Made by a program: the position numbers and the translations under genes. A stretch of DNA of 24,351 nt, taken from UHGV virus genome UHGV-0125333. The stretch is one strand, 5' to 3'. Position 1 is the first letter of the stretch, and every line of letters begins with the position of its first letter. This document shows positions 2,816 through 23,415 of this stretch, piece after piece. Origin of the DNA: a virus. The notes beneath the pieces were generated by a model. That model was not told where the DNA came from. It did no database searches and saw nothing but the letters and a program-made list of their open reading frames with translations.

Positions 2816-3571
2816 TTAAACTGCTAGTTGCAATTGCATTTCAAAGCGGTCGCGTTGTTCACAATACGCAAGAGAACCAGGGCTATTGTGTGCCTCAATC
2901 CGTTCTACCATTAATGCTGCGCGTGTCTCTTTACTTGCAGGTGCATAAGCCCCAGACCAGGCTTTATCAATACCGATGTTTCGAGCGACGTTCGTACTAT
3001 CTGCGCTGGCTAAGGGTAATTTTGTGAATATCAGCGGATTTAACATGCGCAATCCATGTAGTTTCGTAACCGGCTGACCATGCCCATCAACAATGTGACG
3101 AATCAGGTCTTTCATTCTGGCTACCGCAAGAGTTGGGCGCTTTACGTCATAGTCGCCACAACTACCGATAGCCACTCGCGGAAACTCATTGCACAAATGA
3201 ATAAATCGCGCGTCACTTTCATTCATGTGCCACACTGGAACGCCAGCTAGTTTTCCGTGAGGCCACTCATTCAGAAGCGCATCATTTTCCTCCTCTCCGC
3301 CATCAATAATATCCGGGATAATGGCAAAATCGAATCCTGGGTGATTCTTCCAGCGAGCAACAAACTCGTAGTAATCGCTCCAGTCGATTTTGTTTTTGCC
3401 AGCTGCTTTCCAGGCGGTGAATGCACCGTTGTCCAGCGCGAACGACTGACAGTATTCAGCCGCGAGATTGATCTGGCCTGAATGCGCAAAACTGATAAAC
3501 GCATGTCGCCCTTTCCATGCTCTCATTGCGCACGTATCAGGAGTAATAGGCCCACCGTGGTAGTGAATCAT
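2816..3571 (-). CDS. Hypothetical protein (251 aa), family not assigned
   Basis: Long ORF; ATG at 3571 lies 4 nt after the Ea22-like stop and is preceded by an AAGGAG RBS. The track ORF extends 14 codons further upstream. No family confidently recognised. Confidence 0.6.
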   Translation of the reverse strand: MIHYHGGPITPDTCAMRAWKGRHAFISFAHSGQINLAAEYCQSFALDNGAFTAWKAAGKNKIDWSDYYEFVARWKNHPGFDFAIIPDIIDGGEEENDALLNEWPHGKLAGVPVWHMNESDARFIHLCNEFPRVAIGSCGDYDVKRPTLAVARMKDLIRHIVDGHGQPVTKLHGLRMLNPLIFTKLPLASADSTNVARNIGIDKAWSGAYAPASKETRAALMVERIEAHNSPGSLAYCEQRDRFEMQLQLAV

Positions 3572-3572
3572 C

Positions 3573-3980
3573 TCACTCTCCTTTGATGCGAATGCCAGTA
3601 GCGCGGATTGCATCGATGACTTCAGAAACTTTGTATGCCATTACCGTTTGGTAATCATCGTGAAAATCTGTTCGATGAAGCATGCTGCTACGTTCCGGGA
3701 GCAGTATTTCCCGCGCTTCCAGTTCTGCAATGCGCTTTTTTGCTGCTTCCAGTTCATCCAGTAATTCCAGCACGGTAGCCGGATTAGCCTTGGCAACAAA
3801 ATCCCGGACTGGCTTACAATCAATCTCCGCAATGGGTTGATACGATGTGTAGCCATGCTGTCTTGTATAACTACCGTGACGAATAACGAAAAAATCACCA
3901 TTTATTTTTTTAGCCTGCCACTTATCTTCACCGGCTTTCTCTGCCGCTTCACGCAGTGCCTGAGAGTTAATTTCGCTCAC
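3573..3980 (-). CDS. Ead/Ea22-like protein
   Basis: 135-aa ORF starting MSEINSQALREAAEKAGEDKWQAKKINGDFFVIRHG with a coiled-coil-like ELLDELEAAKKRIAELEA segment; resembles the Ead/Ea22-like prophage family. Confidence 0.7.
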   Translation of the reverse strand: MSEINSQALREAAEKAGEDKWQAKKINGDFFVIRHGSYTRQHGYTSYQPIAEIDCKPVRDFVAKANPATVLELLDELEAAKKRIAELEAREILLPERSSMLHRTDFHDDYQTVMAYKVSEVIDAIRATGIRIKGE

Positions 3981-4198
3981 TTCGAACCTCTCTGTTTACT
4001 GATAAGCTCCAGATCCTCCTGGCAACTTGCACAAGTCCGACAACCCTGAACGACCAGGCGTCTTCGTTCATCTATCGGATCGCCACACTCACAACAATGA
4101 GTGGCAGATACAGTCTGGTAGTTCAGACGACGCATTTTTATTGCTGTGTTGCGCTGTAATTCTTCAATTTCTGATGCTGAATCAATGATGTCTGCCAT
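3977..4198 (-). CDS. TraR/DksA-family C4 zinc-finger protein
   Basis: 73-aa ORF with CxxC ... CxxC spacing (CCECGDPIDERRRLVVQGCRTCASC) typical of phage TraR/DksA zinc fingers; its stop overlaps the downstream start (ATGA). Confidence 0.8.
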   Translation of the reverse strand: MADIIDSASEIEELQRNTAIKMRRLNYQTVSATHCCECGDPIDERRRLVVQGCRTCASCQEDLELISKQRGSK

Positions 4199-4250
4199 CT
4201 TCCATTAATCCCTGAATTGTTGGTTAATACGCTTGAGGGTGAATGCGAAT

Positions 4251-4274
4251 AATAAAAAAGGAGCCTGTAGCTCC
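4251..4274 (-). terminator. Candidate intrinsic terminator within the leftward early operon
   Basis: On the minus strand, GGAGC-TACAG-GCTCC hairpin followed by TTTTTTATT, directly downstream of the ORF ending at 4297. Confidence 0.4.
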
Positions 4275-4296
4275 CTGATGATTTTGCTTTTCATGT

Positions 4297-4578
4297 TCAT
4301 CGTTCCTTAAAGACGCCGTTTAACATGCCGATTGCCAGGCTTAAATGAGTCGGTGTGAATCCCATCAGCGTTACCGTTTCGCGGTGCTTCTTCAGTACGC
4401 TACGGCAAATGTCATCGACGTTTTTATCCGGAAACTGCTGTCTGGCTTTTTTGATTTCAGAATTAGCCTGACGGGCAATGCTGCGAAGGGCGTTTTCCTG
4501 CTGAGGTGTCATTGAACAAGTCCCATGTCGGCAAGCATAAGCACACAGAATATGAAGCCCGCTGCCAGAAAAATGCAT
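4297..4578 (-). CDS. Small hypothetical phage protein (lambda orf61 position)
   Basis: 93-aa ORF; an internal ATG at 4512 (MTPQQENALRSIARQ...) is an alternative start. Start is ambiguous. Confidence 0.55.
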   Translation of the reverse strand: MHFSGSGLHILCAYACRHGTCSMTPQQENALRSIARQANSEIKKARQQFPDKNVDDICRSVLKKHRETVTLMGFTPTHLSLAIGMLNGVFKER

Positions 4579-7943: not shown

Positions 7944-8070
7944 ATATCACCTTAAATAGTGGATAGCGGTAGTAAAGATTGTGCCTGTCTTTTAACCACA
8001 TCAGGCTCGGTGGTTCTCGTGTACCCCTACAGCGAGAAATCGGATAAACTATTACAACCCCTACAGTTTG

Positions 8071-8622
8071 ATGAGTATAGAAATGGATCCACTCGTTATT
8101 CTCGGACGAGTGTTCAGTAATGAACCTCTGGAGAGAACCATGTATATGATCGTTATCTGGGTTGGACTTCTGCTTTTAAGCCCAGATAACTGGCCTGAAT
8201 ATGTTAATGAGAGAATCGGTATTCCTCATGTGTGGCATGTTTTCGTCTTTGCTCTTGCATTTTCGCTAGCAATTAATGTGCATCGATTATCAGCTATTGC
8301 CAGCGCCAGATATAAGCGATTTAAGCTAAGAAAACGCATTAAGATGCAAAACGATAAAGTGCGATCAGTAATTCAAAACCTTACAGAAGAGCAATCTATG
8401 GTTTTGTGCGCAGCCCTTAATGAAGGCAGGAAGTATGTGGTTACATCAAAACAATTCCCATACATTAGTGAGTTGATTGAGCTTGGTGTGTTGAACAAAA
8501 CTTTTTCCCGATGGAACGGGAAGCATATATTATTCCCTATTGAGGATATTTACTGGACTGAATTAGTTGCCAGCTATGATCCATATAATATTGAGATAAA
8601 GCCAAGGCCAATATCTAAGTAA
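8071..8622 (+). CDS. sieB: SieB superinfection exclusion protein
   Basis: ORF convergent with N, with hydrophobic segments (MYMIVIWVGLLLLSPDNW..., VFVFALAFSLAINV), matching lambda SieB. ATG at 8071; the track ORF starts at TTG 8068. Confidence 0.8.
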   Translation: MSIEMDPLVILGRVFSNEPLERTMYMIVIWVGLLLLSPDNWPEYVNERIGIPHVWHVFVFALAFSLAINVHRLSAIASARYKRFKLRKRIKMQNDKVRSVIQNLTEEQSMVLCAALNEGRKYVVTSKQFPYISELIELGVLNKTFSRWNGKHILFPIEDIYWTELVASYDPYNIEIKPRPISK

Positions 8623-8946
8623 CTAAGTAAGAGGAATCGATTTTCCCTTAATTTTCTGGCGTCCACTGCATGTTATGCCGCGTTCGCCAGGCTTGCTGTA
8701 CCATGTGCGCTGATTCTTGCGCTCAATACGTTGCAGGTTGCTTTCAATCTGTTTGTGGTATTCAGCCAGCACTGTAAGGTCTATCGGATTTAGTGCGCTT
8801 TCTACTCGTGATTTCGGTTTGCGATTCAGCGAGAGAATAGGGCGGTTAACTGGTTTTGCGCTTACCCCAACCAACAGGGGATTTGCTGCTTTCCATTGAG
8901 CCTGTTTCTCTGCGCGACGTTCGCGGCGGCGTGTTTGTGCATCCAT
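8623..8946 (-). CDS. N: N antitermination protein
   Basis: From the internal ATG at 8946: MDAQTRRRERRAEKQAQWKAANPLLVGVSAKPVNRPILSLNRKPKSRVESALNPIDLT..., 107 aa with the arginine-rich motif of lambda N. Confidence 0.95.
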   Translation of the reverse strand: MDAQTRRRERRAEKQAQWKAANPLLVGVSAKPVNRPILSLNRKPKSRVESALNPIDLTVLAEYHKQIESNLQRIERKNQRTWYSKPGERGITCSGRQKIKGKSIPLT

Positions 8947-9103
8947 CTGGATTCTCCTGTCAGTTAGCTTTGGTTGTGTGTGGGAGTCGTAGTCCTGAAC
9001 GAAAACACCCAGCAATGGCACATTGACAGCTAATCCGGATTCGCACTTCCGGCCAATGCTTCGTTTCGTATCACACACACCAAAGCCTTCTGCTTTGAAT
9101 GCT

Positions 9104-9134
9104 GCCCTTCTTCAGGGCTTAATTTTTAAGAGCA
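9104..9134 (-). promoter_or_regulatory. nutL (boxB hairpin plus boxA-like element)
   Basis: Plus strand reads GCCCTTCTTCAGGGC (reverse complement of lambda nutL boxB GCCCTGAAGAAGGGC) followed by TTAATTTTTAAGAGCA (boxA, one mismatch to CGCTCTTAA). Confidence 0.7.
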
Positions 9135-9178
9135 TCACCTTCATGGTGGTCAGTGCGTCCTGCTGATGGCCTAAAATA

Positions 9179-9259
9179 TACCTACAGGTAAAGCAGTTGT
9201 CTATACCTGCAGGTAAATAAAATTGATGTAAGAGTTTACCTGCTTGAATTTTCAGGTAA
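9179..9259. promoter_or_regulatory. oL/pL region with repressor operators
   Basis: Palindromes TACCTACAGGTA (9179..9190) and TACCTGCAGGTA (9204..9215), plus TTACCTG-N10-CAGGTAA (9237..9259), upstream of nutL and N. The same motif recurs in the cI-cro intergenic region. Confidence 0.55.
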
Positions 9260-9279
9260 TTAATTTTTTGGATTGATAT

Positions 9280-9300
9280 AAAAAAGCCCGCTTTGCGGGC
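9280..9300 (-). terminator. Intrinsic terminator ending the repressor operon
   Basis: On the minus strand, GCCCGC-AAA-GCGGGC hairpin followed by TTTTTT, 13 nt downstream of the ORF ending at 9313. Confidence 0.6.
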
Positions 9301-9312
9301 TGAAAGGAGATG

Positions 9313-9627
9313 TCAGAAGCTATTTGGATTGCTTGGCCATTGCGGCAATTTTGATTCTACTGGGGTGTGTTTGGGTTTGAGTCCGTTTAAGTAGTCAAGA
9401 CGCTCAATGGCGCATTTATACATAGCAATCTGCTCTGATGACATGTCGTCGTATGACATGCCTTTGAACTTTTTAATTATCGATTCTGCCTCATGTATAA
9501 GATGCTTCTTCTTCATGAGTTCAGCTGTATGCTTAGAGCTTACAGGAGATAACTTTGCCCATATGAAGCAGATGATTACAACAGCGACTACTATGCCGGG
9601 TATAAACACTTGCTGCTTTATCCTCAA
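9313..9627 (-). CDS. Small single-pass membrane protein co-transcribed with the repressor (rex-locus position); candidate exclusion or lysogeny-associated factor
   Basis: 104-aa ORF with an N-terminal hydrophobic helix (VFIPGIVVAVVIICFIWAKL). Its ATG overlaps the repressor stop (ATGA) and a terminator follows. Confidence 0.7.
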   Translation of the reverse strand: MRIKQQVFIPGIVVAVVIICFIWAKLSPVSSKHTAELMKKKHLIHEAESIIKKFKGMSYDDMSSEQIAMYKCAIERLDYLNGLKPKHTPVESKLPQWPSNPNSF

Positions 9628-10310
9628 ACTTTTGGCAGATCGTCCTGGTCTACGTACCTGGTGTGTTTCACAATAGCTGAAACAAAATGCATTTTATCAA
9701 CTTCTTCAACAGGAAGAGTGATTGGGCGGTGATCACTGTTTATGCTACTAAACTGATAATCACCGTCTCTTGTTTTGTTCATGATCTTTATCATGTTGTG
9801 ACCGTCTTTGGTCCTTACAAAGACTTCATCACCTGGATGTACTGGCGTATTTGGTTCAATAACAACATATTCTCCTGACTGAATCCTTGGCCACATGCTG
9901 TCACCCTTAACCTTCAGACCGTAAGCATCGTTATCGCCGCTGTAGATGCTTAACCAACCGGATCTGAATTCAATCATATCCACTGAGCCATCAACTCCCA
10001 AAACGGCTTCACCAATTACCGGAACAAAACCCGCACGAACGTTACCCGCAAACTCAAGATGGTCTGTAGCTCCAGCTTTACCATCTGCAAGCATGTCCAT
10101 CCATCCGCGTGGGAGATTAAAAGATTTTTCAATTAGTTCCATCATATCGTCAGCAATGCGTTTTTTTCCGCTTTTTCCTTCCGGATACAGCATTCTGGAA
10201 ACGTATGATGGTTCCCTTTCTATTCGACGAGCCAACTCTGAGGCCTTTCCATTACAGAATCGGTCTCTTATCTCTATCAGCCTTAGTCGTCTTTGTTCGT
10301 ATTTATCCAT
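9624..10310 (-). CDS. CI-like prophage repressor with C-terminal LexA/S24 peptidase-like domain (non-lambda immunity)
   Basis: 228-aa ORF divergent from the cro-like gene. The C-terminal region (GDSMWPRIQSGEYVVIEP ... DEVFVRTKDGHNMIKI) has the S24 Ser/Lys autocleavage fold pattern. Operators lie on both sides. Confidence 0.88.
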   Translation of the reverse strand: MDKYEQRRLRLIEIRDRFCNGKASELARRIEREPSYVSRMLYPEGKSGKKRIADDMMELIEKSFNLPRGWMDMLADGKAGATDHLEFAGNVRAGFVPVIGEAVLGVDGSVDMIEFRSGWLSIYSGDNDAYGLKVKGDSMWPRIQSGEYVVIEPNTPVHPGDEVFVRTKDGHNMIKIMNKTRDGDYQFSSINSDHRPITLPVEEVDKMHFVSAIVKHTRYVDQDDLPKV

Positions 10311-10330
10311 GATTTAATTCTATCTTTGAT

Positions 10331-10382
10331 TACCTGCCGGTAAATAACCTATGGGTATTGATTTGATTTTTACCTACAGGTA
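10331..10382. promoter_or_regulatory. oR/pR-pRM region with repressor operators
   Basis: TACCTGCCGGTA (10331..10342), a degenerate copy near 10346..10358 and TACCTACAGGTA (10371..10382), between the divergent repressor and cro-like genes. A GGAAGGAGA RBS precedes cro. Confidence 0.6.
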
Positions 10383-10418
10383 AACTCATCTTATTCAACA
10401 ACGGGAAGGAGATAGCAA

Positions 10419-10649
10419 ATGGAAGAACTCCGCTTGTATCTGAACTCCCTTTCACTGGAAGAGCAGAGAGAATTTGCCACCAAGTGCGGAACTTCTATCG
10501 GCTATTTGAGGAAAGCACTTAGCCGTAATCATGAATTGGGCGCAGCACTTTGTGTTCTGATTGAGAAGTTCAGCAATGGTGAAGTGACTCGCAAAGACCT
10601 TCATCCGGTTGATTGGGAAAGCATCTGGCCTGAATTAATGGCCGCTTAA
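10419..10649 (+). CDS. Cro-like HTH regulator (YdaS/Cro family)
   Basis: 76-aa ORF transcribed divergently from the repressor, with strong RBS and an HTH-like segment (ATKCGTSIGYLRKALSRN). Confidence 0.75.
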   Translation: MEELRLYLNSLSLEEQREFATKCGTSIGYLRKALSRNHELGAALCVLIEKFSNGEVTRKDLHPVDWESIWPELMAA

Positions 10650-15845: not shown

Positions 15846-16370
15846 TTATTGTTTAACCCATAATAATTCATTGACATTGAATCCCAACTTTTGAGCGGTT
15901 CGCACATAGTCTGCTTTTACTTTATCTGGAATAGTTGGGGTCCTTGCCAGAATCCATAGGTATTCTCTGTTCGGACCACTGACAAGAGCATACTTATACT
16001 CATCATCCAGTTTGATTACATTATAGCCACCATAGAAGGGGCCAAAAAACGAAACCTTCAATGCTGCAGTTTTAGTATCTCCAGTAAAGTATGCTTTACC
16101 TTCGCTCTCGCTCCATTTATTTTTCGTTGGATCGTATCCACGGTTAAGTACACGAATCCCTCCGTCGTTCCGTTTTCCATAAGTAGCGCTGACCTGTTCC
16201 AGACCACGTTCGAACCGGTTCTCGAGGCGAGCTATTTCATACCATTTTCCGAGGTAGCGGTTGGCGTCAAAATTTGTAATCGGCTGCACACCTTTAGGTG
16301 GTGTCGGGGCCTTACATGCTATAAGAGTGAAAGAGAGTGCAATGCCAGTCAACACAGGCCATAACTTCAT
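15846..16370 (-). CDS. Bacterial lipocalin (Blc-like) outer-membrane lipoprotein
   Basis: 174-aa ORF with signal peptide and lipobox (FTLIAC) and lipocalin motifs (NFDANRYLGKWYEIARLENRFERG ... KVSFFGPFYGGYNVI) paralleling E. coli Blc; a paralogue, not blc itself. Confidence 0.85.
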   Translation of the reverse strand: MKLWPVLTGIALSFTLIACKAPTPPKGVQPITNFDANRYLGKWYEIARLENRFERGLEQVSATYGKRNDGGIRVLNRGYDPTKNKWSESEGKAYFTGDTKTAALKVSFFGPFYGGYNVIKLDDEYKYALVSGPNREYLWILARTPTIPDKVKADYVRTAQKLGFNVNELLWVKQ

Positions 16371-16562
16371 AATAAATCCTGTACTTTTGATAGTTGAGAG
16401 TAAGTATGAAAGATAGATGATTACGACCGATCACTTAAAGAACTTTCATACTATATTAGGAATAGTCCATAACAGAAAAATTGTCAGTGATGACGCCAGA
16501 AAGGCAATTTATTCCGTGCACTACACAGTTTATGTGTTAATGAATTAGTCAAGGGGGAGAAT

Positions 16563-17522
16563 ATGATAAAAAAACCTGTGATTGGAATCAGCGGTTGTTT
16601 GGCCGGTTCTGCTGTTCGTTTTGATGGTGGTCACAAAAGAGCTGACTTTTTAATGGACAAATTAGTGGAATGGGTAACATTCAGACCAGTATGTCCGGAA
16701 ATGGCTATAGGGCTGCCAGTTCCGCGTCCTGCTCTACGTCTTGTGCGCTCGATGCAAGGAAATATACGGATGTGTTTCAGCCACGACCAGAATGAGGATG
16801 TGACAGAGAGAATGACAGAGTTTAGTCGTTCTTATATGGACAAATTAAAGGATGTATCGGGGTTTGTGGTTTGTGCTAAATCTCCCAGCTGTGGCATGGA
16901 GCGCGTGCGTGTCTATGATGAAAATGGTAATCGAGGTCGTAAAGATGGAGTGGGACTATTTACGAGCACTTTGATGGAAAAGTTTTCCTGGCTACCGGTT
17001 GAAGAGGATGGGCGATTACATGATCCAGTGCTTCGTGAGAATTTTGTTGAAAGAGTTTTTGCTTTGCATGAGCTCAATCACCTTTACAAGGAGAAATTAT
17101 CAAGAAGAGAGTTATTAGCTTTTCATAGTCGTTATAAGCTTCAGTTGTTGGCGCATAGTCAGGCAGGCTATAAAGATATGGGACCATTTGTGGCTGCAAT
17201 ACACGAGTGGGCGGACCTTGAATCATACTTTGAGGTGTATCGTGATAAGCTGATGGCGATTCTCAGAAAACCTGCATCACGTAAAAATCACACGAATGTG
17301 TTGATGCATATACAGGGGTATTTTAGTAACTACTTAAGTACACGCCAGCGTAAAGAGTTGAGCGAGGTTATACTTAACTATCGTTCTGGCACATTACCTC
17401 TTCTTGCGCCGTTGACTCTGCTGAAGCATTATCTGGGTGAGTATCCTAATGATTACTTGCTTACACAGAATTACTTCGATCCCTATCCGGACGAACTGGC
17501 TCTAAGACTGACGGTAAATTAA
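16563..17522 (+). CDS. DUF523-DUF1722 fusion protein (TudS-like Cys-rich N-terminal domain plus YbgA-like C-terminal domain)
   Basis: 319-aa ORF with strong RBS (AAGGGGGAGAAT). N-terminus MIKKPVIGISGCLAGSAVRFDGGHKR with further conserved Cys (PVCPEM, SPSCGMERV) as in the DUF523 family. Assigned from recall. Confidence 0.75.
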   Translation: MIKKPVIGISGCLAGSAVRFDGGHKRADFLMDKLVEWVTFRPVCPEMAIGLPVPRPALRLVRSMQGNIRMCFSHDQNEDVTERMTEFSRSYMDKLKDVSGFVVCAKSPSCGMERVRVYDENGNRGRKDGVGLFTSTLMEKFSWLPVEEDGRLHDPVLRENFVERVFALHELNHLYKEKLSRRELLAFHSRYKLQLLAHSQAGYKDMGPFVAAIHEWADLESYFEVYRDKLMAILRKPASRKNHTNVLMHIQGYFSNYLSTRQRKELSEVILNYRSGTLPLLAPLTLLKHYLGEYPNDYLLTQNYFDPYPDELALRLTVN

Positions 17523-17873
17523 TTGTATGCGATATCATCCAAAAGGATGAGTTCCTGCATGCAGGATATTTACAATCGTAAAAACTACACTATGATACCC
17601 AGAGTGTCAGTTTGTATAAAAACTCTGTTTACTCTGAAGAAACAATTGAGATGCAACTTAAAGTTGGTAAACATGCCAGTCAAAATATATAATATTATGA
17701 TTCCACGCAGCTATATATAATATAACAGATTGGTTTAATAATTTGTCTTTGTGAGTTAAATACATAATTTTATACTTGTGATGCAATGAAATTTTCCTTA
17801 TTGTTGAACTGGCGAATATTGATTTTCCACCTATACTTACCTGGTGTAACCCCAATGATATCAGGTGGATAAT

Positions 17874-18605
17874 ATGCCATACATATGTTCTATCATTTTG
17901 GTGTTGAACTCGTTTGATGTCCGAATTGGTAAAGAAGATATTTTGTTTAAAAAAGGAAGTGCTGTTCTCATTGATTACAATTTAAAAGATTTTTTTTCAT
18001 CAAATATAGATCATGTAATGATCGTAGATGTTGAAGAGAAAACAGTTAATGATTTCTTTAAAAGCAACACACTCTCACCTTTTTCTGTAAGAAGGTTTTA
18101 TCCGGCATACTTGATGGTGGAATGTGAAGATTTTTCATTGTTAAAGAACTTGATTGCATGCTTGAATTGTGATGGCAGAACTGTGGATTTTGTTAGAAAT
18201 CAAATATCACTTGCATGTCTTGCTATCTTATCTTCAGAGAAAATAGTGCAAAGTTTTTTATTTGGATGTCTTAATAGTTTAGGAAGTAAAGTTAAGGCTA
18301 TTATTCACACGGATATATCTGCAGCATGGAGACTTTGTGATATATCTTCAAGACTGTATCTGAGTGAAAGTCTGTTAAAAAGAAAATTAAAGCACGAAGG
18401 CTTATCATTTAGTAAGTTAATTCTTGAAGAGCGAATGGTGATGGCGGAAAGGTTATTAAGCTACAATTTATATTCTGTTGGAAAAGTTGCTGAGATATGC
18501 GGTTATGAAAACACGTCATATTTTGTAAGTGTTTTCAGAAGGTATTTTGGTGTTCCTCCCCATCAATATTCATCAAGATTTTTTTTAGAAAAAGACATGA
18601 TGTAA
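17874..18605 (+). CDS. AraC/XylS-family transcriptional regulator (AppY/EnvY-like)
   Basis: ATG at 17874 (track ORF starts at GTG 17865). C-terminal AraC-type HTH (VGKVAEICGYENTSYFVSVFRRYFGVPPHQY); N-terminus MPYICSIILVLNSF parallels AppY MDYVCSVVFICQSF. AT-rich gene with a long AT-rich upstream region. Confidence 0.85.
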   Translation: MPYICSIILVLNSFDVRIGKEDILFKKGSAVLIDYNLKDFFSSNIDHVMIVDVEEKTVNDFFKSNTLSPFSVRRFYPAYLMVECEDFSLLKNLIACLNCDGRTVDFVRNQISLACLAILSSEKIVQSFLFGCLNSLGSKVKAIIHTDISAAWRLCDISSRLYLSESLLKRKLKHEGLSFSKLILEERMVMAERLLSYNLYSVGKVAEICGYENTSYFVSVFRRYFGVPPHQYSSRFFLEKDMM

Positions 18606-18792
18606 CGTGATGCGTTTTAATGATTTTGTAATTTTCGTATTTGATAATTGTATGATGCTTTCAGCTACGCCAGAATAATCGCGGCGTTTTTCTTTTTGAA
18701 TAGATGTTCAAGCCTTACGCTAATGTAACTTCTATACCTTTCCTCTTCGTTCCGAACCGTGTACACCATCCGTTATTTGCGGAGGTGAGGCT

Positions 18793-19008
18793 ATGAAATC
18801 CATGGATAAGTTAACAACGGGTGTCGCCTATGGCACCTCAGCAGGTAGTGCCGGTTACTGGTTTTTACAGCTGCTCGATAAAGTCACGCCCTCACAGTGG
18901 GCAGCAATAGGTGTGCTGGGTAGCCTGGTATTTGGCCTGCTGACGTACCTGACAAACCTTTATTTCAAGATTAAAGAAGATAAGCGCAAGGCTGCGAGAG
19001 GTGAATAA
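18793..19008 (+). CDS. Class II holin (pinholin), phage-21 S / EssD type, with dual-start motif
   Basis: 71-aa [74 protein letters not shown]. Met1 and Met4 give antiholin/holin starts; strong RBS GGAGGTGAGG. Confidence 0.9.
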
Positions 19009-19505
19009 TGCCTCCATCATTACGAAAAGCCGTTGCTGCTGCTATTGGTGGCGGAGCAATTGCTATAGCATCAGTGTTAATCACTGGCCCAAGTGGTAAC
19101 GATGGTCTGGAAGGTGTCAGCTACATACCATACAAAGATATCGTTGGCGTATGGACTGTATGTCACGGGCATACAGGAAAAGACATCATTCCCGGTAAAA
19201 CGTATACCGAAGCAGAATGCAAAGCCCTCCTGAATAAAGACCTTGCCACGGTAGCCAGACAAATTAACCCGTACATCAAAGTCGATATACCGGAAACAAC
19301 GCGCGGCGCTCTTTACTCGTTCGTCTATAACGTGGGCGCAGGCAATTTCAGAACATCTACTCTTCTTCGCAAAATAAACCAGGGCGATATCAAGGGCGCA
19401 TGTGACCAGCTACGTCGCTGGGCATACGCTGGCGGTAAGCAATGGAAAGGCCTGATGACTCGTCGTGAGATTGAGCGTGAGGTCTGTTTGTGGGGGCAAC
19501 AATGA
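19008..19505 (+). CDS. SAR endolysin (lysozyme, phage-21 R type)
   Basis: 165-aa ORF with an N-terminal Gly/Ala-rich signal-anchor-release segment ([20 protein letters not shown]) and a lysozyme-like body; start overlaps the holin stop (TAATG). Confidence 0.9.
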
Positions 19506-19966
19506 GCAGGGTAACCGCGATTATCTCCGCTCTGGTTATCTGCATCGTCGTCTGCCTGTCATGGGGTGTTAATCATTACCGTGATAACGCCATCGCCTAC
19601 AAAGAACAGCGCGACAAAAATGCCAGAGAACTGAAGCTGGCGAACGCGGCAATTACTGACATGCAGATGCGTCAGCGTGATGTTGCTGCGCTCGATGCAA
19701 AATACACGAAGGAGTTAGCTGATGCGAAAGCTGAAAATGATGTTCTGCGTGATGATGTTGCCGCTGGTCGTCGTCGGTTGCACATCAAAGCAGTCTGTCA
19801 GTCAGTGCGTGAAGCCACCACCGCCTCCGGCGTGGATAATGCAGCCTCCCCCCGACTGGCAGACACCGCTGAACGGGATTATTTCACCCTCCGGGAACGA
19901 CTGGTAATGATGCAGGCCCAACTTGAAGGTGCTCAGCAATACATAACCGAGCAGTGTTTAAAGTAA
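19502..19966 (+). CDS. Rz i-spanin
   Basis: From the ATG at 19502: [60 protein letters not shown]..., matching lambda Rz; overlaps the endolysin stop. Confidence 0.9.
19722..19907 (+). CDS. Rz1 o-spanin lipoprotein, embedded in Rz in the +1 frame
   Basis: ORF with lipobox LPLVVVGC and a proline-rich tail ([25 protein letters not shown]), matching lambda Rz1. Confidence 0.8.
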
Positions 19967-20103
19967 AATCTTAACTACAATATGATTCATTTTGATGATT
20001 GTTTCATAAGGAACAGTGAAGTAAGATCTAAGAGGAGTTAAATTTTATACAGTATAATCATAATATTGCAGCAAGGTGGTTATAATTGAAAGAATATTTA
20101 GAT

Positions 20104-21561
20104 ATGAATACATCTCATGTAAGAGTTGTTACTCATATGTGTGGGTTCCTGGTTTGGCTCTATAGTCTTTCAATGTTGCCACCAATGGTTGTAGCATTGT
20201 TTTATAAAGAAAAAAGCCTGTTCGTTTTCTTTATAACTTTCGTTATATTTTTTTGCATTGGTGGCGGAGCGTGGTATACAACTAAGAAATCTGGCATTCA
20301 ATTACGTACCCGTGATGGGTTTATTATAATTGTAATGTTTTGGATTTTGTTTTCTGTTATTAGTGCATTCCCTTTATGGATTGACTCAGAACTTAATTTA
20401 ACGTTCATTGATGCTCTGTTTGAAGGGGTTTCTGGAATAACAACAACAGGAGCAACTGTAATTGATGATGTTAGTTCATTACCTCGGGCATATTTGTACT
20501 ATCGGTCACAGTTAAATTTTATAGGTGGTTTAGGAGTTATTGTTCTGGCGGTTGCTGTATTGCCATTATTGGGTATTGGTGGTGCAAAGCTTTATCAGTC
20601 AGAAATGCCGGGGCCATTTAAGGATGACAAACTCACTCCCCGCCTGGCCGATACGTCACGGACACTGTGGATAACTTATTCTTTATTAGGTATTGCTTGT
20701 ATTGTCTGTTATAGACTTGCAGGAATGCCTTTGTTTGATGCTATTTGTCACGGGATTTCCACAGTTTCGCTTGGTGGTTTCTCAACTCATAGCGAGAGTA
20801 TCGGATATTTTAATAACTATTTGGTTGAGCTGGTGGCTGGTTCTTTTTCCCTGCTATCGGCTTTCAACTTCACTCTTTGGTATATTGTTATTAGCAGGAA
20901 AACGATAAAACCTTTAATCAGAGATATTGAACTTCGTTTCTTTCTGTTAATAGCCTTAGGGGTGATCATTGTTACCTCTTTCCAGGTCTGGCATATAGGT
21001 ATGTATGACTTGCATGGAAGTTTTATTCATTCGTTTTTTCTTGCCAGCTCCATGCTCACTGATAATGGTTTAGCTACGCAGGATTATGCAAGTTGGCCCA
21101 CGCACACGATAGTGTTTTTGCTGTTGTCAAGTTTCTTTGGGGGATGTATAGGTTCAACTTGTGGTGGAATTAAGTCACTTCGATTTCTTATACTTTTCAA
21201 ACAAAGCAAACACGAGATAAATCAGCTTTCTCATCCCAGAGCGTTGTTGAGTGTAAATGTAGGAGGGAAGATAGTTACAGATCGTGTAATGAGGTCTGTA
21301 TGGAGTTTCTTTTTTCTTTATACTCTCTTCACGGTGTTTTTTATACTGGTGTTAAATGGTATGGGATATGATTTTCTTACATCATTTGCAACAGTGGCTG
21401 CATGTATTAATAATATGGGATTAGGTTTTGGGGCTACTGCATCGTCATTCGGAGTGCTTAATGACATTGCAAAATGTTTAATGTGCATAGCTATGATTCT
21501 TGGTCGCCTTGAAATTTATCCTGTTATTATATTGTTTTCAGGTTTTTTTTGGCGCTCCTAA
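20104..21561 (+). CDS. trkG: TrkG/TrkH-family K+ uptake membrane protein
   Basis: 485 aa from the ATG at 20104 (MNTSHVRVVTHMCGFLVWLYSLSMLPP...), multi-pass membrane protein matching Rac-prophage TrkG as recalled; AT-rich coding sequence. Confidence 0.88.
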   Translation: MNTSHVRVVTHMCGFLVWLYSLSMLPPMVVALFYKEKSLFVFFITFVIFFCIGGGAWYTTKKSGIQLRTRDGFIIIVMFWILFSVISAFPLWIDSELNLTFIDALFEGVSGITTTGATVIDDVSSLPRAYLYYRSQLNFIGGLGVIVLAVAVLPLLGIGGAKLYQSEMPGPFKDDKLTPRLADTSRTLWITYSLLGIACIVCYRLAGMPLFDAICHGISTVSLGGFSTHSESIGYFNNYLVELVAGSFSLLSAFNFTLWYIVISRKTIKPLIRDIELRFFLLIALGVIIVTSFQVWHIGMYDLHGSFIHSFFLASSMLTDNGLATQDYASWPTHTIVFLLLSSFFGGCIGSTCGGIKSLRFLILFKQSKHEINQLSHPRALLSVNVGGKIVTDRVMRSVWSFFFLYTLFTVFFILVLNGMGYDFLTSFATVAACINNMGLGFGATASSFGVLNDIAKCLMCIAMILGRLEIYPVIILFSGFFWRS

Positions 21562-21698: not shown

Positions 21699-22490
21699 AT
21701 GAGCGAGAAATTAAAGATAGTCTATCGCCCATTACAAGAATTGTCACCGTATGCGCACAACGCCAGGACGCACAGCCCTGAGCAGGTGGCACAACTGGTA
21801 GAAAGTATTAAGCAATTCGGCTGGACTAATCCGGTGCTGATTGACGAAAAGGGCGAAATTATTGCGGGTCACGGTCGTGTTATGGCGGCTGAAATGCTCA
21901 AAATGGATTCTGTTCCGGTCATTGTTCTGTCTGGCCTGACGGATGAGCAGAAAAAGGCGTACCGCCTGGCAGATAATCGCCTGCCGATGAATGCTGGCTG
22001 GGATGAAGATCTGTTGCGGATGGAGCTGTCGGACCTAATCAATGCTGATTTTGATGTCTCCCTGACAGGCTTCATCCCGACAGAAATTGATGAACTGTTG
22101 ACGGATGTTTTGCCCGGTACAGGAAATGAGGAGGAGCCGTATACGACGAAAATTGATACGCCTGTTTATGAGCCGTCGGGCGGTAAACCGGATATCAGTG
22201 AACTGTACGACGATACGAAAACTCAGGAGCTGATCAGCCGGATACGTTCGGCGTCCCTTGAGCCTGATATTGAGAAATTCCTCCTGTGTGCGGCAGAACG
22301 TCACACGGTGTTTAATTTCAGCAGAATTGCGGACTATTACGCTCACGCCCCCTCTGAAATTCAGTGTTTTTTCGAGGAGTCGGCGCTGGTGATCATTGAT
22401 TATCAGCAGGCTATTGAAAATGGATTTGTCCGGATGACGCAGCGCATGGTGGAGATCATGCATGGTGGTGAGGAGGAGGAATATGCGTGA
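21699..22490 (+). CDS. ParB N-terminal-domain (ParB/Srx-fold nuclease-like) protein
   Basis: 263-aa ORF with a ParB-box-like region (VLIDEKGEIIAGHGRVMAAEMLKMDSVPVIVL) and an acidic C-terminal tail. It sits where ynaK lies in Rac, downstream of trkG. Confidence 0.8.
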   Translation: MSEKLKIVYRPLQELSPYAHNARTHSPEQVAQLVESIKQFGWTNPVLIDEKGEIIAGHGRVMAAEMLKMDSVPVIVLSGLTDEQKKAYRLADNRLPMNAGWDEDLLRMELSDLINADFDVSLTGFIPTEIDELLTDVLPGTGNEEEPYTTKIDTPVYEPSGGKPDISELYDDTKTQELISRIRSASLEPDIEKFLLCAAERHTVFNFSRIADYYAHAPSEIQCFFEESALVIIDYQQAIENGFVRMTQRMVEIMHGGEEEEYA

Positions 22491-23415
22491 TGATTTTTGC
22501 GCCTTTATTCTGACTCACGGGCGACCGGACAAAGTTCTGACTTACCGGACGTTGCGTCGTGCTGGCTATACCGGGAAAATTTTTATCGTTGTTGATGATG
22601 AAGATAAGACACGGAATCAGTACATGGCTGAATTTGGTGAACAGGTGCTGGTGTTTTCCAAAGCCGATATCGCCAGTCGTTTTGACGAAGCCGATAATTT
22701 CTGTGACCGCCGCTCAATTTTTTACGCCCGTAATGCCTGTTTCGACCTGGCAAAACTGGTCGGGTGTAAATACTTCATTCAGCTCGATGATGATTATCAC
22801 GAGTTCCAGTTTCGGGTGGATCGCAACTATGACCAGGCCTATTTTCCGATAAGGAAACTGGATGCGATCCTTTCTGAAATGCTGGCGTACTACGAATCAA
22901 TACCTGCTCTTTCCATCGCTATGTCGCAGGGCGGGGATTTTCTTGGTGACAATGGCGGCCATGCTTCGTGGGTGAAACGCAAGGCAATGAACAGCTTTAT
23001 CTGTTCGGTTGATCGACCGTTCTCATTCATGGGGCGCATTAACGAGGATGTGAATACGTACACGAATCTCGGTCGCTGTGGTGAATTGTTTATGACGATC
23101 GGTGCTGTCCAGTTAGGGCAGAAACAGACGCAGAAAAACAGCGGCGGAATGACCGAGCTGTATCTGGATTCCGGAACCTACGTTAAAAGTTTTTACTCCG
23201 TCATGTATGCGCCGTCGTGCGTAAAAATCTCACTGATGGGTGCCAGCCATAAACGCATTCACCATCAGGTCACCTGGAACAACGCTGCAGTAAAAATCCT
23301 TCACGAAAAATACAGGAAGAAGACACCCTGCATATCAATGGGGGTGACAAATGATTCCGTATTCGAAAGTCGAGTCTCTGGCAGCGTGCCGGATGACTGC
23401 ACAACAAATCGCTGA
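22483..23415 (+). CDS. GT-A-fold glycosyltransferase-like protein (GT2-like signature), translationally coupled to the ParB-like gene
   Basis: ATG at 22483 overlaps the upstream stop by 8 nt. N-terminal FILTHGRPD ... IFIVVDDEDKT and the later ARNACFDLAKLVGCKYFIQLDDDYHEF block resemble the two nucleotide-sugar-binding motifs of GT-A enzymes. It sits where ydaY lies in Rac. Confidence 0.65.
   Translation: MRDDFCAFILTHGRPDKVLTYRTLRRAGYTGKIFIVVDDEDKTRNQYMAEFGEQVLVFSKADIASRFDEADNFCDRRSIFYARNACFDLAKLVGCKYFIQLDDDYHEFQFRVDRNYDQAYFPIRKLDAILSEMLAYYESIPALSIAMSQGGDFLGDNGGHASWVKRKAMNSFICSVDRPFSFMGRINEDVNTYTNLGRCGELFMTIGAVQLGQKQTQKNSGGMTELYLDSGTYVKSFYSVMYAPSCVKISLMGASHKRIHHQVTWNNAAVKILHEKYRKKTPCISMGVTNDSVFESRVSGSVPDDCTTNR

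Follow-up and report, generated by a model that had tools for sequence, protein, structure and literature searches.

A candidate family of small lysogen-protecting membrane proteins encoded next to the cI repressor in mEp043-type prophages

The stretch of viral DNA analysed here (24,351 nucleotides, in the following called the window) corresponds to the early part of a prophage of the lambda type, in which the genes follow the order int, xis, exo/bet/gam, kil, cIII, ral, sieB, N and the immunity region, after which come cII, O, P, ren, the nin genes, Q, the lysis genes, trkG and the gene for the small terminase subunit; N, O and P resemble their lambda counterparts. In its immunity region (9150-10420), the window shares 99.4% DNA identity with phage mEp043 (JQ182734, NC_019706, PV340537), where the counterpart of the repressor gene is annotated as cI or prophage repressor and the ORF corresponding to 9313-9609 bears the label "hypothetical protein" and nothing more. 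It is this small gene, located between cI and the OL/PL region, that is the subject of the present analysis. The features of the immunity region are compiled in Table 1.

Table 1. Features in and around the immunity region of the window
Feature	Coordinates	Strand	Basis
PL-like promoter	9203..9175	-	promoter scan; mEp043 annotation "putative PL"
OL operators, same TACCTnnnGGTA motif as OR, overlapping the PL-like promoter	9179-9190, 9204-9215		pattern search
Intrinsic terminator closing the repressor operon, just before OL/PL	9279..9301	-	stem AGCCCGC-AAA-GCGGGCT and T-run
Predicted CDS for the membrane-anchored protein (98 aa), from GTG at 9609 to TGA at 9315..9313	9313..9609	-	ORF, PHROG 10450, family alignment
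Spacer from repressor stop to GTG start, with TTG (9627..9625) and SD-like GAGGA	9610..9627	-	sequence
CI-type repressor, 228 aa, S24 (LexA-like) autopeptidase domain	9624..10310	-	Pfam PF00717, E = 1.4e-17
PRM-like promoter, TTTACC-16-TAGAAT	10317..10344	-	consensus scan
OR, three operator half-palindromes of the form TACCTnnnGGTA	10331-10342, 10346-10357, 10371-10382		pattern search
Cro-like repressor, 76 aa, divergent from cI	10419..10649	+	PHROG 35; annotated Cro in PV340537

The operator pattern has 12 matches where 2.35 are expected, and these cluster at OR and OL. The PL-like promoter fires toward N and away from the small gene. Upstream of the repressor gene, the -10 hexamer of the PRM-like promoter ends only 7 nt before the ATG at 10310, which suggests that the cI transcript is leaderless, as in lambda. 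No terminator was found between cI and the small gene; an intrinsic terminator behind the latter, as claimed in an earlier reading made from the letters alone (in the following, the sequence-only reading), was confirmed as a 7-bp GC-rich stem (9301..9285) followed by a T-run, with a folding energy of -12.6 kcal/mol (z = -3.33). Because only 14 nt separate the two genes, no terminator intervenes and one follows, co-transcription of the small gene with cI from the PRM-like promoter is the simplest reading. A possible internal promoter inside cI (10001..9973) was discarded, such sites being no more frequent than chance (4 versus 3.5 expected). Since the cI mRNA would be leaderless and the small gene has a Shine-Dalgarno (SD) sequence of its own, the two proteins might be made in unequal amounts.

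Several observations concern other parts of the window. An intact sieB (8068-8622, plus strand; Pfam SieB PF14163, E = 1e-29) is located in the PL operon on the opposite strand and ends 1 nt before the ORF containing N, so that the prophage has an exclusion gene in addition to the candidate described here; in strain 2018-18.25PC, whose prophage is near-identical, an IS1 element interrupts sieB. The region from Q to the packaging genes (15846-21561) contains cargo including a lipocalin gene on the minus strand, a gene for a YbgA/2-thiouracil-desulfurase-like protein and one for an AraC-family regulator; at the latter, the same prophage of strain 2018-18.25PC carries an inserted ISApl1-mcr-1 composite transposon. 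A TrkH/TrkG potassium transporter gene follows the lysis genes of the window, as it does in Rac. Directly upstream of the small terminase subunit gene lies a pair of genes (21699-23415, plus strand), a 263-aa ORF followed by one for a 317-aa protein matching TET-associated glycosyltransferase (TAGT, E = 8e-35), which may constitute a DNA-modification module; in a related genome, the corresponding gene bears the annotation ParB/Srx-like (ynaK).

As called, the ORF directly behind the repressor gene occupies 9313..9627 on the minus strand and comprises 104 codons beginning with TTG; from it the sequence-only reading had deduced a 104-aa protein that starts on the ATGA ending the repressor gene and thus overlaps it. 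There is no ATGA at this junction, which reads GTT-TGA-GG with TTGA as the overlap if TTG is taken as the start, and the true start is probably GTG 9609 rather than TTG 9627. All relatives begin with M/V-[YFW]-I-[PS], and in the alignment this start coincides with GTG 9609; four E. coli variants have ATG in place of the GTG, and both PHROG 10450 and the GenBank annotation of mEp043 (mEp043_049) start at this position. The SD-like GAGGA (9625..9621), overlapping the TGA of the repressor gene (9626..9624), lies 11 nt before GTG 9609, and no SD precedes TTG 9627; relatives have a strong SD (TAAGGAG or GGAGG) 5-8 nt ahead of the equivalent start, and the longer ORFs called for those in P22-like loci merely read through it. 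An N-terminal extension equivalent to 9610..9627 is found in no relative, and one of them (L009, see below) has an in-frame stop two codons upstream of the start. The family alignment, the ATG variants and the positions of the SD sequences rule out the TTG start and with it the 104-aa product, leaving a protein of 98 aa whose gene has a separate SD. The two genes are closely apposed instead of overlapping; the 14-nt gap between the repressor stop and the GTG compares with 3-5 nt in the three other cI-linked alleles.

Comparison with relatives indicates that 9313..9609 is a real gene. Its frame is conserved down to about 30% identity, and relatives at 27-41% identity share its length and its hydrophobic N-terminus. 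The ratio of non-synonymous to synonymous substitution rates (omega) is 0.08-0.28 overall: close E. coli variants differ by six synonymous and two to four non-synonymous changes (omega 0.08-0.16), and for a pair of alleles whose products are 70% identical (L008 and L044) omega is 0.28. K34, I38, E40, A41, M56, C66, A67, L71, W91 and P92 are invariant in the family alignment. Other coding or structural content of the region was considered but could be ruled out; a plus-strand ORF (9407..9676) is interrupted by stop codons in variants, and an Rfam scan of 8900-10500 returned nothing near gathering scores for an RNA element. With respect to annotation, the gene is left out by PGAP in five genomes (L015-L019; E. 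coli MS 110-3, ECONIH4, JNE131328, CAVp367 and W444), and in AP023286 a truncated ORF of 67 aa lacking the transmembrane helix is called. As the NCBI pipeline omits or truncates the gene in every RefSeq genome examined, surveys of defence genes which rely on such annotation are blind to this family.

The protein has one hydrophobic segment, at its N-terminus (19-mer Kyte-Doolittle values up to 2.57), and no other, in agreement with the single-pass membrane protein originally proposed; the transmembrane helix covers approximately residues 2-19 of the 98-aa protein. An AF2 model built with the family alignment (pLDDT 76) has helices at residues 5-19, 23-47 and 58-75, followed by a Pro/Trp-rich tail. 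None of 16 family members has a charged residue before the hydrophobic core, and the 15 residues behind the hydrophobic segment contain 2-6 K/R across members; from this charge pattern, that is, from the positive-inside rule, we predict an N-out/C-in topology with a basic, helical domain of about 75 aa in the cytoplasm. The single invariant Cys of the soluble part, which is unpaired, and the modelled helix at residues 5-19 are the further support for this topology. A Sec signal peptide, suggested by MRIKQQ and the hydrophobic core if translation began at TTG, is ruled out since no relative has the n-region; so is a lipoprotein, as Cys14 is not conserved (Phe in P0002) and a [GAS]-C lipobox is missing.

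PHROG 10450 is the only family to which the protein can be assigned by homology. Residues 7-104 of the 104-aa ORF match the profile over its whole length (positions 1-98 of 98) with E = 1.4e-54, and ORF14 of phage N7 matches it with E = 3.2e-52; however, PHROG 10450 carries no annotation, and membership therefore says nothing on function. Besides the topology prediction, which supports one transmembrane segment, a remote-homology search had been proposed along with the sequence-only reading; it led to no named family. Neither the protein nor 16 family members gave a meaningful match to Pfam, NCBIfam or PADLOC, so that the failure of the earlier reading to recognize the family is borne out, as is its statement that the protein is neither RexA nor RexB, a Pfam scan at E <= 1 yielding noise only (best E = 0.098). 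Pfam SieB (PF14163) does not match the protein either, and none of the defence or candidate-defence families of PADLOC-DB 2.0 does at E <= 1. A profile search of PDB sequences returned a best E of 1.8, and Foldseek of the AF2 model against BFVD and PDB nothing below E = 1, although a helical hairpin carries little information for such a comparison. In the literature on mEp043 and on genes downstream of repressors, no study of the gene at 9313-9609 was found.

The family is very small and restricted to Enterobacteria. When 1.84 billion representative proteins were searched exhaustively with HMMER, no more than about nine true relatives emerged, and a profile search of 5.8 billion proteins gave 26 clusters, whose sources, where an organism is named, are all E. 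coli, E. fergusonii or Salmonella and whose named proteins are all "hypothetical". Among 50,697 phage records, a family member is present only in mEp043, N7 and HZ41; with P0006 as the query, nothing was found in viral contigs. In total, about 2% of the complete E. coli genomes (52 with the cI-linked gene and 57 with a copy of the P22 type, out of 5,426) carry a family member.

The relatives occur in only two genomic contexts, of which the first is that of the window, behind the same type of repressor. Here, four diverged alleles can be distinguished: that shared by the window and mEp043, L008 (from a JGI metagenome), L009 (from Logan) and L044 (from IMG/VR). The full-length repressor allele is found in as many complete E. 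coli genomes as the cI-linked gene, namely 52, and the latter abuts an S24 peptidase gene in every match listed for these genomes. Because the flanking N genes and the neighbours differ among the genomes of this context, the small gene travels with cro and cI as one module. In one of the E. coli genomes (L019, W444), the OL/PL region beyond the terminator (window 9200-9312) is diverged by 15%, while the small gene and cI differ by at most 1%, a step which indicates a mosaic recombination boundary just outside the small gene.

The second context is that of P22-like phages, with eight loci (phage N7, that is, L003, and L004, L005, L010, L011, L012, L013 and L014). There, the homologue occupies the interval between genes 16 and 9 and is convergent with gene 16, which encodes an ejection protein; in L003, L004 and L013 it is located downstream of mnt-like genes, in L013 directly after Mnt. 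No S24 repressor is encoded near these homologues. A ninth P22-like locus (L006) is degenerate, with the family member beside remnants of ejection genes, and none of the nine encodes a SieA of the P22 type. In N7 (L003 2508-3348) and a related contig (L004 2196-2886), the mnt-like gene and the family member are separated by two further small ORFs, among them those for a 169-aa protein with one transmembrane segment (phrog_24865) and for a holin-like protein of 110 aa (phrog_6324/689); together with the family member, the set resembles a single operon for membrane proteins expressed from the prophage. L006 (2547-6747) has the appearance of a decayed P22-like prophage in which only gp7- and gp20-like genes are left, and its family member adjoins genes for a type VI secretion Hcp and an effector with a Tlde1 domain.

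Within the repressor-linked context, the small gene, although under purifying selection, evolves much faster than its surroundings. Between the window and L008 or L009, the CI proteins are 83% and the Cro proteins about 90% identical, whereas the 98-aa proteins share just 40-42% of their residues; DNA identity falls from about 0.75 to about 0.5 over the small gene alone and recovers in the OL/PL region. L008 and L044 encode CI proteins that are 98% identical (dN 0.009, dS 0.37) and small proteins that are 70% identical (dN 0.162, dS 0.59); at similar dS, dN of the small protein is 18-fold above that of CI. Such a pattern would fit a protein that tracks variable partners, or alleles that are shuffled between flanking homologies; it could also reflect relaxed constraint, and as omega is below 1 overall, positive selection is not demonstrated.

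With the small gene lying between cI and OL/PL and a terminator behind it, its position is, as the sequence-only reading had it, that of rexAB in lambda. The interval between cI and N is a mosaic hotspot which holds rexAB and bstA (PMC8585504). In 17 loci from other enterobacterial genera, whose repressors are 47-71% identical to that of the window, no family member is present; instead the slot accommodates genes for an RmrA-like M78 peptidase, a HipA-like kinase (HipA_2; PADLOC PDC-M66A), RhuM (PDC-S05) or DUF3024 (PDC-S43), where the "PDC" models of PADLOC denote candidates only, or for unknown small proteins, or N itself follows the repressor gene directly. This cargo (at approximately 3000-4400 in each of L022-L037) was seen in Proteus, Providencia, Pectobacterium, Morganella, Photorhabdus and other hosts; in Photorhabdus, the slot contains a pair of small ORFs encoding proteins of 112 aa and 99 or 105 aa, with one transmembrane segment. 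The defence candidates among the cargo of these distant relatives and the published hotspot agree with the earlier description of the slot as a classic site for exclusion or abortive-infection genes. Position is nevertheless circumstantial evidence, as both slots which the family occupies also carry genes unrelated to phage defence.

We propose that the 98-aa protein is a bitopic inner-membrane protein belonging to an mEp043-type immunity module that consists of cro, cI and the small gene. Its gene would be transcribed together with that of the repressor, in the lysogen from PRM and during establishment from PRE, and translation would use a separate SD immediately behind the repressor stop. 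The N-terminal helix would serve as an anchor with essentially no residues outside, and the basic helical domain, with the invariant pairs E40-A41, C66-A67 and W91-P92, would be held at the cytoplasmic face of the membrane. From there the protein may guard the lysogen against superinfecting phages, preferably by interfering with genome delivery at the inner membrane, which would be the role of P22 SieA without kinship to it. Expression in the lysogen, topology, the anti-phage function and the step that is blocked are all parts of the proposal that we infer, and for a lysogen-expressed inner-membrane protein which protects against superinfection, most likely at genome delivery, we estimate a probability of roughly 0.4. 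Genome delivery is favoured because the other half of the family is found at the sieA position, beside genes for ejection proteins. Speaking against a block at entry, those steps of DNA entry that take place in the periplasm are out of reach for a domain in the cytoplasm; moreover, a common entry target for both clades, the lambdoid cI-linked one and the P22-like one, would have to be presumed, and searches with Pfam, PADLOC, NCBIfam, hhalign, PDB and Foldseek revealed no similarity in sequence or fold to any exclusion, abortive-infection or defence protein. The small gene is a good candidate for a member of a new family of lysogen-protecting proteins.

A wider form of this proposal, to be regarded as more tentative, is that PHROG 10450 as a whole may be a new, fast-evolving exclusion family of single-pass inner-membrane proteins acting from the cytoplasmic side, which would replace SieA in P22-like phages and RexAB in lambdoid ones by moving between the respective slots. 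Were it correct, the family would represent a non-homologous solution to blocking phage genome delivery, one mobile gene would link two classic slots, that downstream of cI and the sieA/immI locus of P22, and the allelic diversity within one immunity type would amount to specificity for different incoming phages. If the protein does act in exclusion, a new family of very small proteins (98 aa) would join the few known injection blockers of Gram-negative hosts, and the system would be tractable in E. coli K-12 since phage mEp043 grows on MG1655; the alleles, which combine identical or near-identical repressors with small proteins only 40-70% identical, would then constitute a specificity panel.

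The main rival to exclusion at genome delivery is abortive infection, in which the protein would sense a phage product in the cytoplasm, depolarize or permeabilize the membrane or cause premature lysis, and thereby kill the cell, as a single-protein functional analogue of RexAB or SieB. Sharing the slot with lambda rexAB and BTP1 bstA, both of which are abortive-infection systems, speaks for this, and a protein with one transmembrane helix and a highly basic tail is broadly like small membrane-active proteins; the copy in L004 adjoins the gene for the holin-like small membrane protein mentioned above, and its rapid divergence would be in keeping with a sensor that has to keep up with the proteins of phages. 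That it is homologous to none of RexA, RexB, SieB and BstA, nor to any PADLOC model, that a single transmembrane helix provides no evident channel, and that the position in P22-like phages is that of sieA, an entry blocker and not an abortive-infection gene, make this explanation an unlikely one in our view.

Alternatively, the protein might not be directed against phages, but be a lysogen-expressed accessory that acts on the host or on the life cycle of the prophage itself, for instance on a membrane protease or chaperone of the FtsH/HflKC type, on envelope physiology, or on the transition from lysogeny to lysis, as has been proposed for RexAB; RexA and RexB reportedly assist the switch to lytic growth. 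Many accessory genes expressed from prophages change host traits and not phage resistance, and the strict link of the gene to one type of repressor and operator in E. coli (52 versus 52 genomes), together with its place inside the repressor operon in all four alleles, would be expected of such an accessory. However, the other clade is found in a different regulatory context, the Mnt/immI region and the ejection genes, with no S24 repressor nearby, and because of this a specific partnership with the CI of the window is unlikely; further, a protein docking onto a conserved host machine would not usually have a dN about 18 times as high as that of cI. We hold a function unrelated to phage defence to be improbable, too. 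Finally, that the ORF is mis-called or non-functional, the region being a 3' untranslated spacer and terminator of the repressor transcript, might be argued from the omission of the gene by PGAP in five RefSeq genomes, the truncated ORF in another, the GTG start and the long SD spacing, but is contradicted by the comparative data and can be set aside as essentially excluded: length, frame, start and motifs persist among relatives of 30-40% identity from two unrelated genomic settings, there is an excess of synonymous changes, the start codon alternates between GTG and ATG, homologues have strong SD sequences, and Rfam has no match in the region.

Compared with known systems, superinfection exclusion by prophage P22 offers a close parallel to the proposed block of genome delivery. 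P22 sieA occupies the interval between genes 16 and 9, is expressed from the prophage and encodes an inner-membrane protein which blocks DNA delivery (PMC10883804). Like SieA, the protein described here is a small (predicted) inner-membrane protein of temperate enterobacterial phages, and its homologues lie in the same interval, in the same orientation and downstream of mnt; this holds for the homologues, whereas the copy of the window follows cI in a lambdoid immunity region. The two are not related, as indicated by a probability of 0.2% when the family profile was compared with SieA by hhalign and by their assignment to different PHROGs (phrog_7745 and phrog_10450). SieA has 162-164 aa, three predicted transmembrane helices and the motif FxRYPxEAxxFNK, in contrast to 98 aa and one transmembrane helix here; the measure used for hydrophobic segments scores three in SieA and one in the 98-aa protein.

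With lambda rexAB, the small gene shares the repressor-distal slot between cI and OL/PL with a terminator behind it, the (here predicted) transcription together with cI, and a membrane protein as product, which is RexB in lambda. Unlike in lambda, there is one gene between cI and the terminator instead of two, and no gene for a partner sensor; Pfam gave no match to RexA or RexB and PADLOC none at all, and RexB has four transmembrane helices as compared to one in the 98-aa protein. BstA of prophage BTP1 is likewise encoded directly downstream of the prophage repressor gene, presumably sharing its promoter (PMC8585504), and variability of the slot, known from the cargo of the cI-N hotspot to which bstA belongs, is also seen among the relatives of the window repressor. 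BstA itself, however, is a large cytoplasmic DNA-binding abortive-infection protein unrelated in sequence.

By size and architecture only, the small protein can be compared to T4 Imm, HK97 gp15 and Sie2009, short membrane-anchored proteins by which a resident phage blocks entry of the DNA of others; lactococcal Sie2009, too, is encoded in a lysogeny module near the repressor. No similarity to these three was found in sequence or fold, the hosts or phage types are different, and they may also differ from it in topology, predicted here as N-out/C-in with a domain in the cytoplasm. T4 Imm and HK97 gp15 are counted among the small membrane proteins that block injection (PMC11436027). In its position, the gene of the window resembles rexAB and bstA, and in the context of its family it resembles sieA; the small gene is a non-homologous occupant of known prophage accessory slots.
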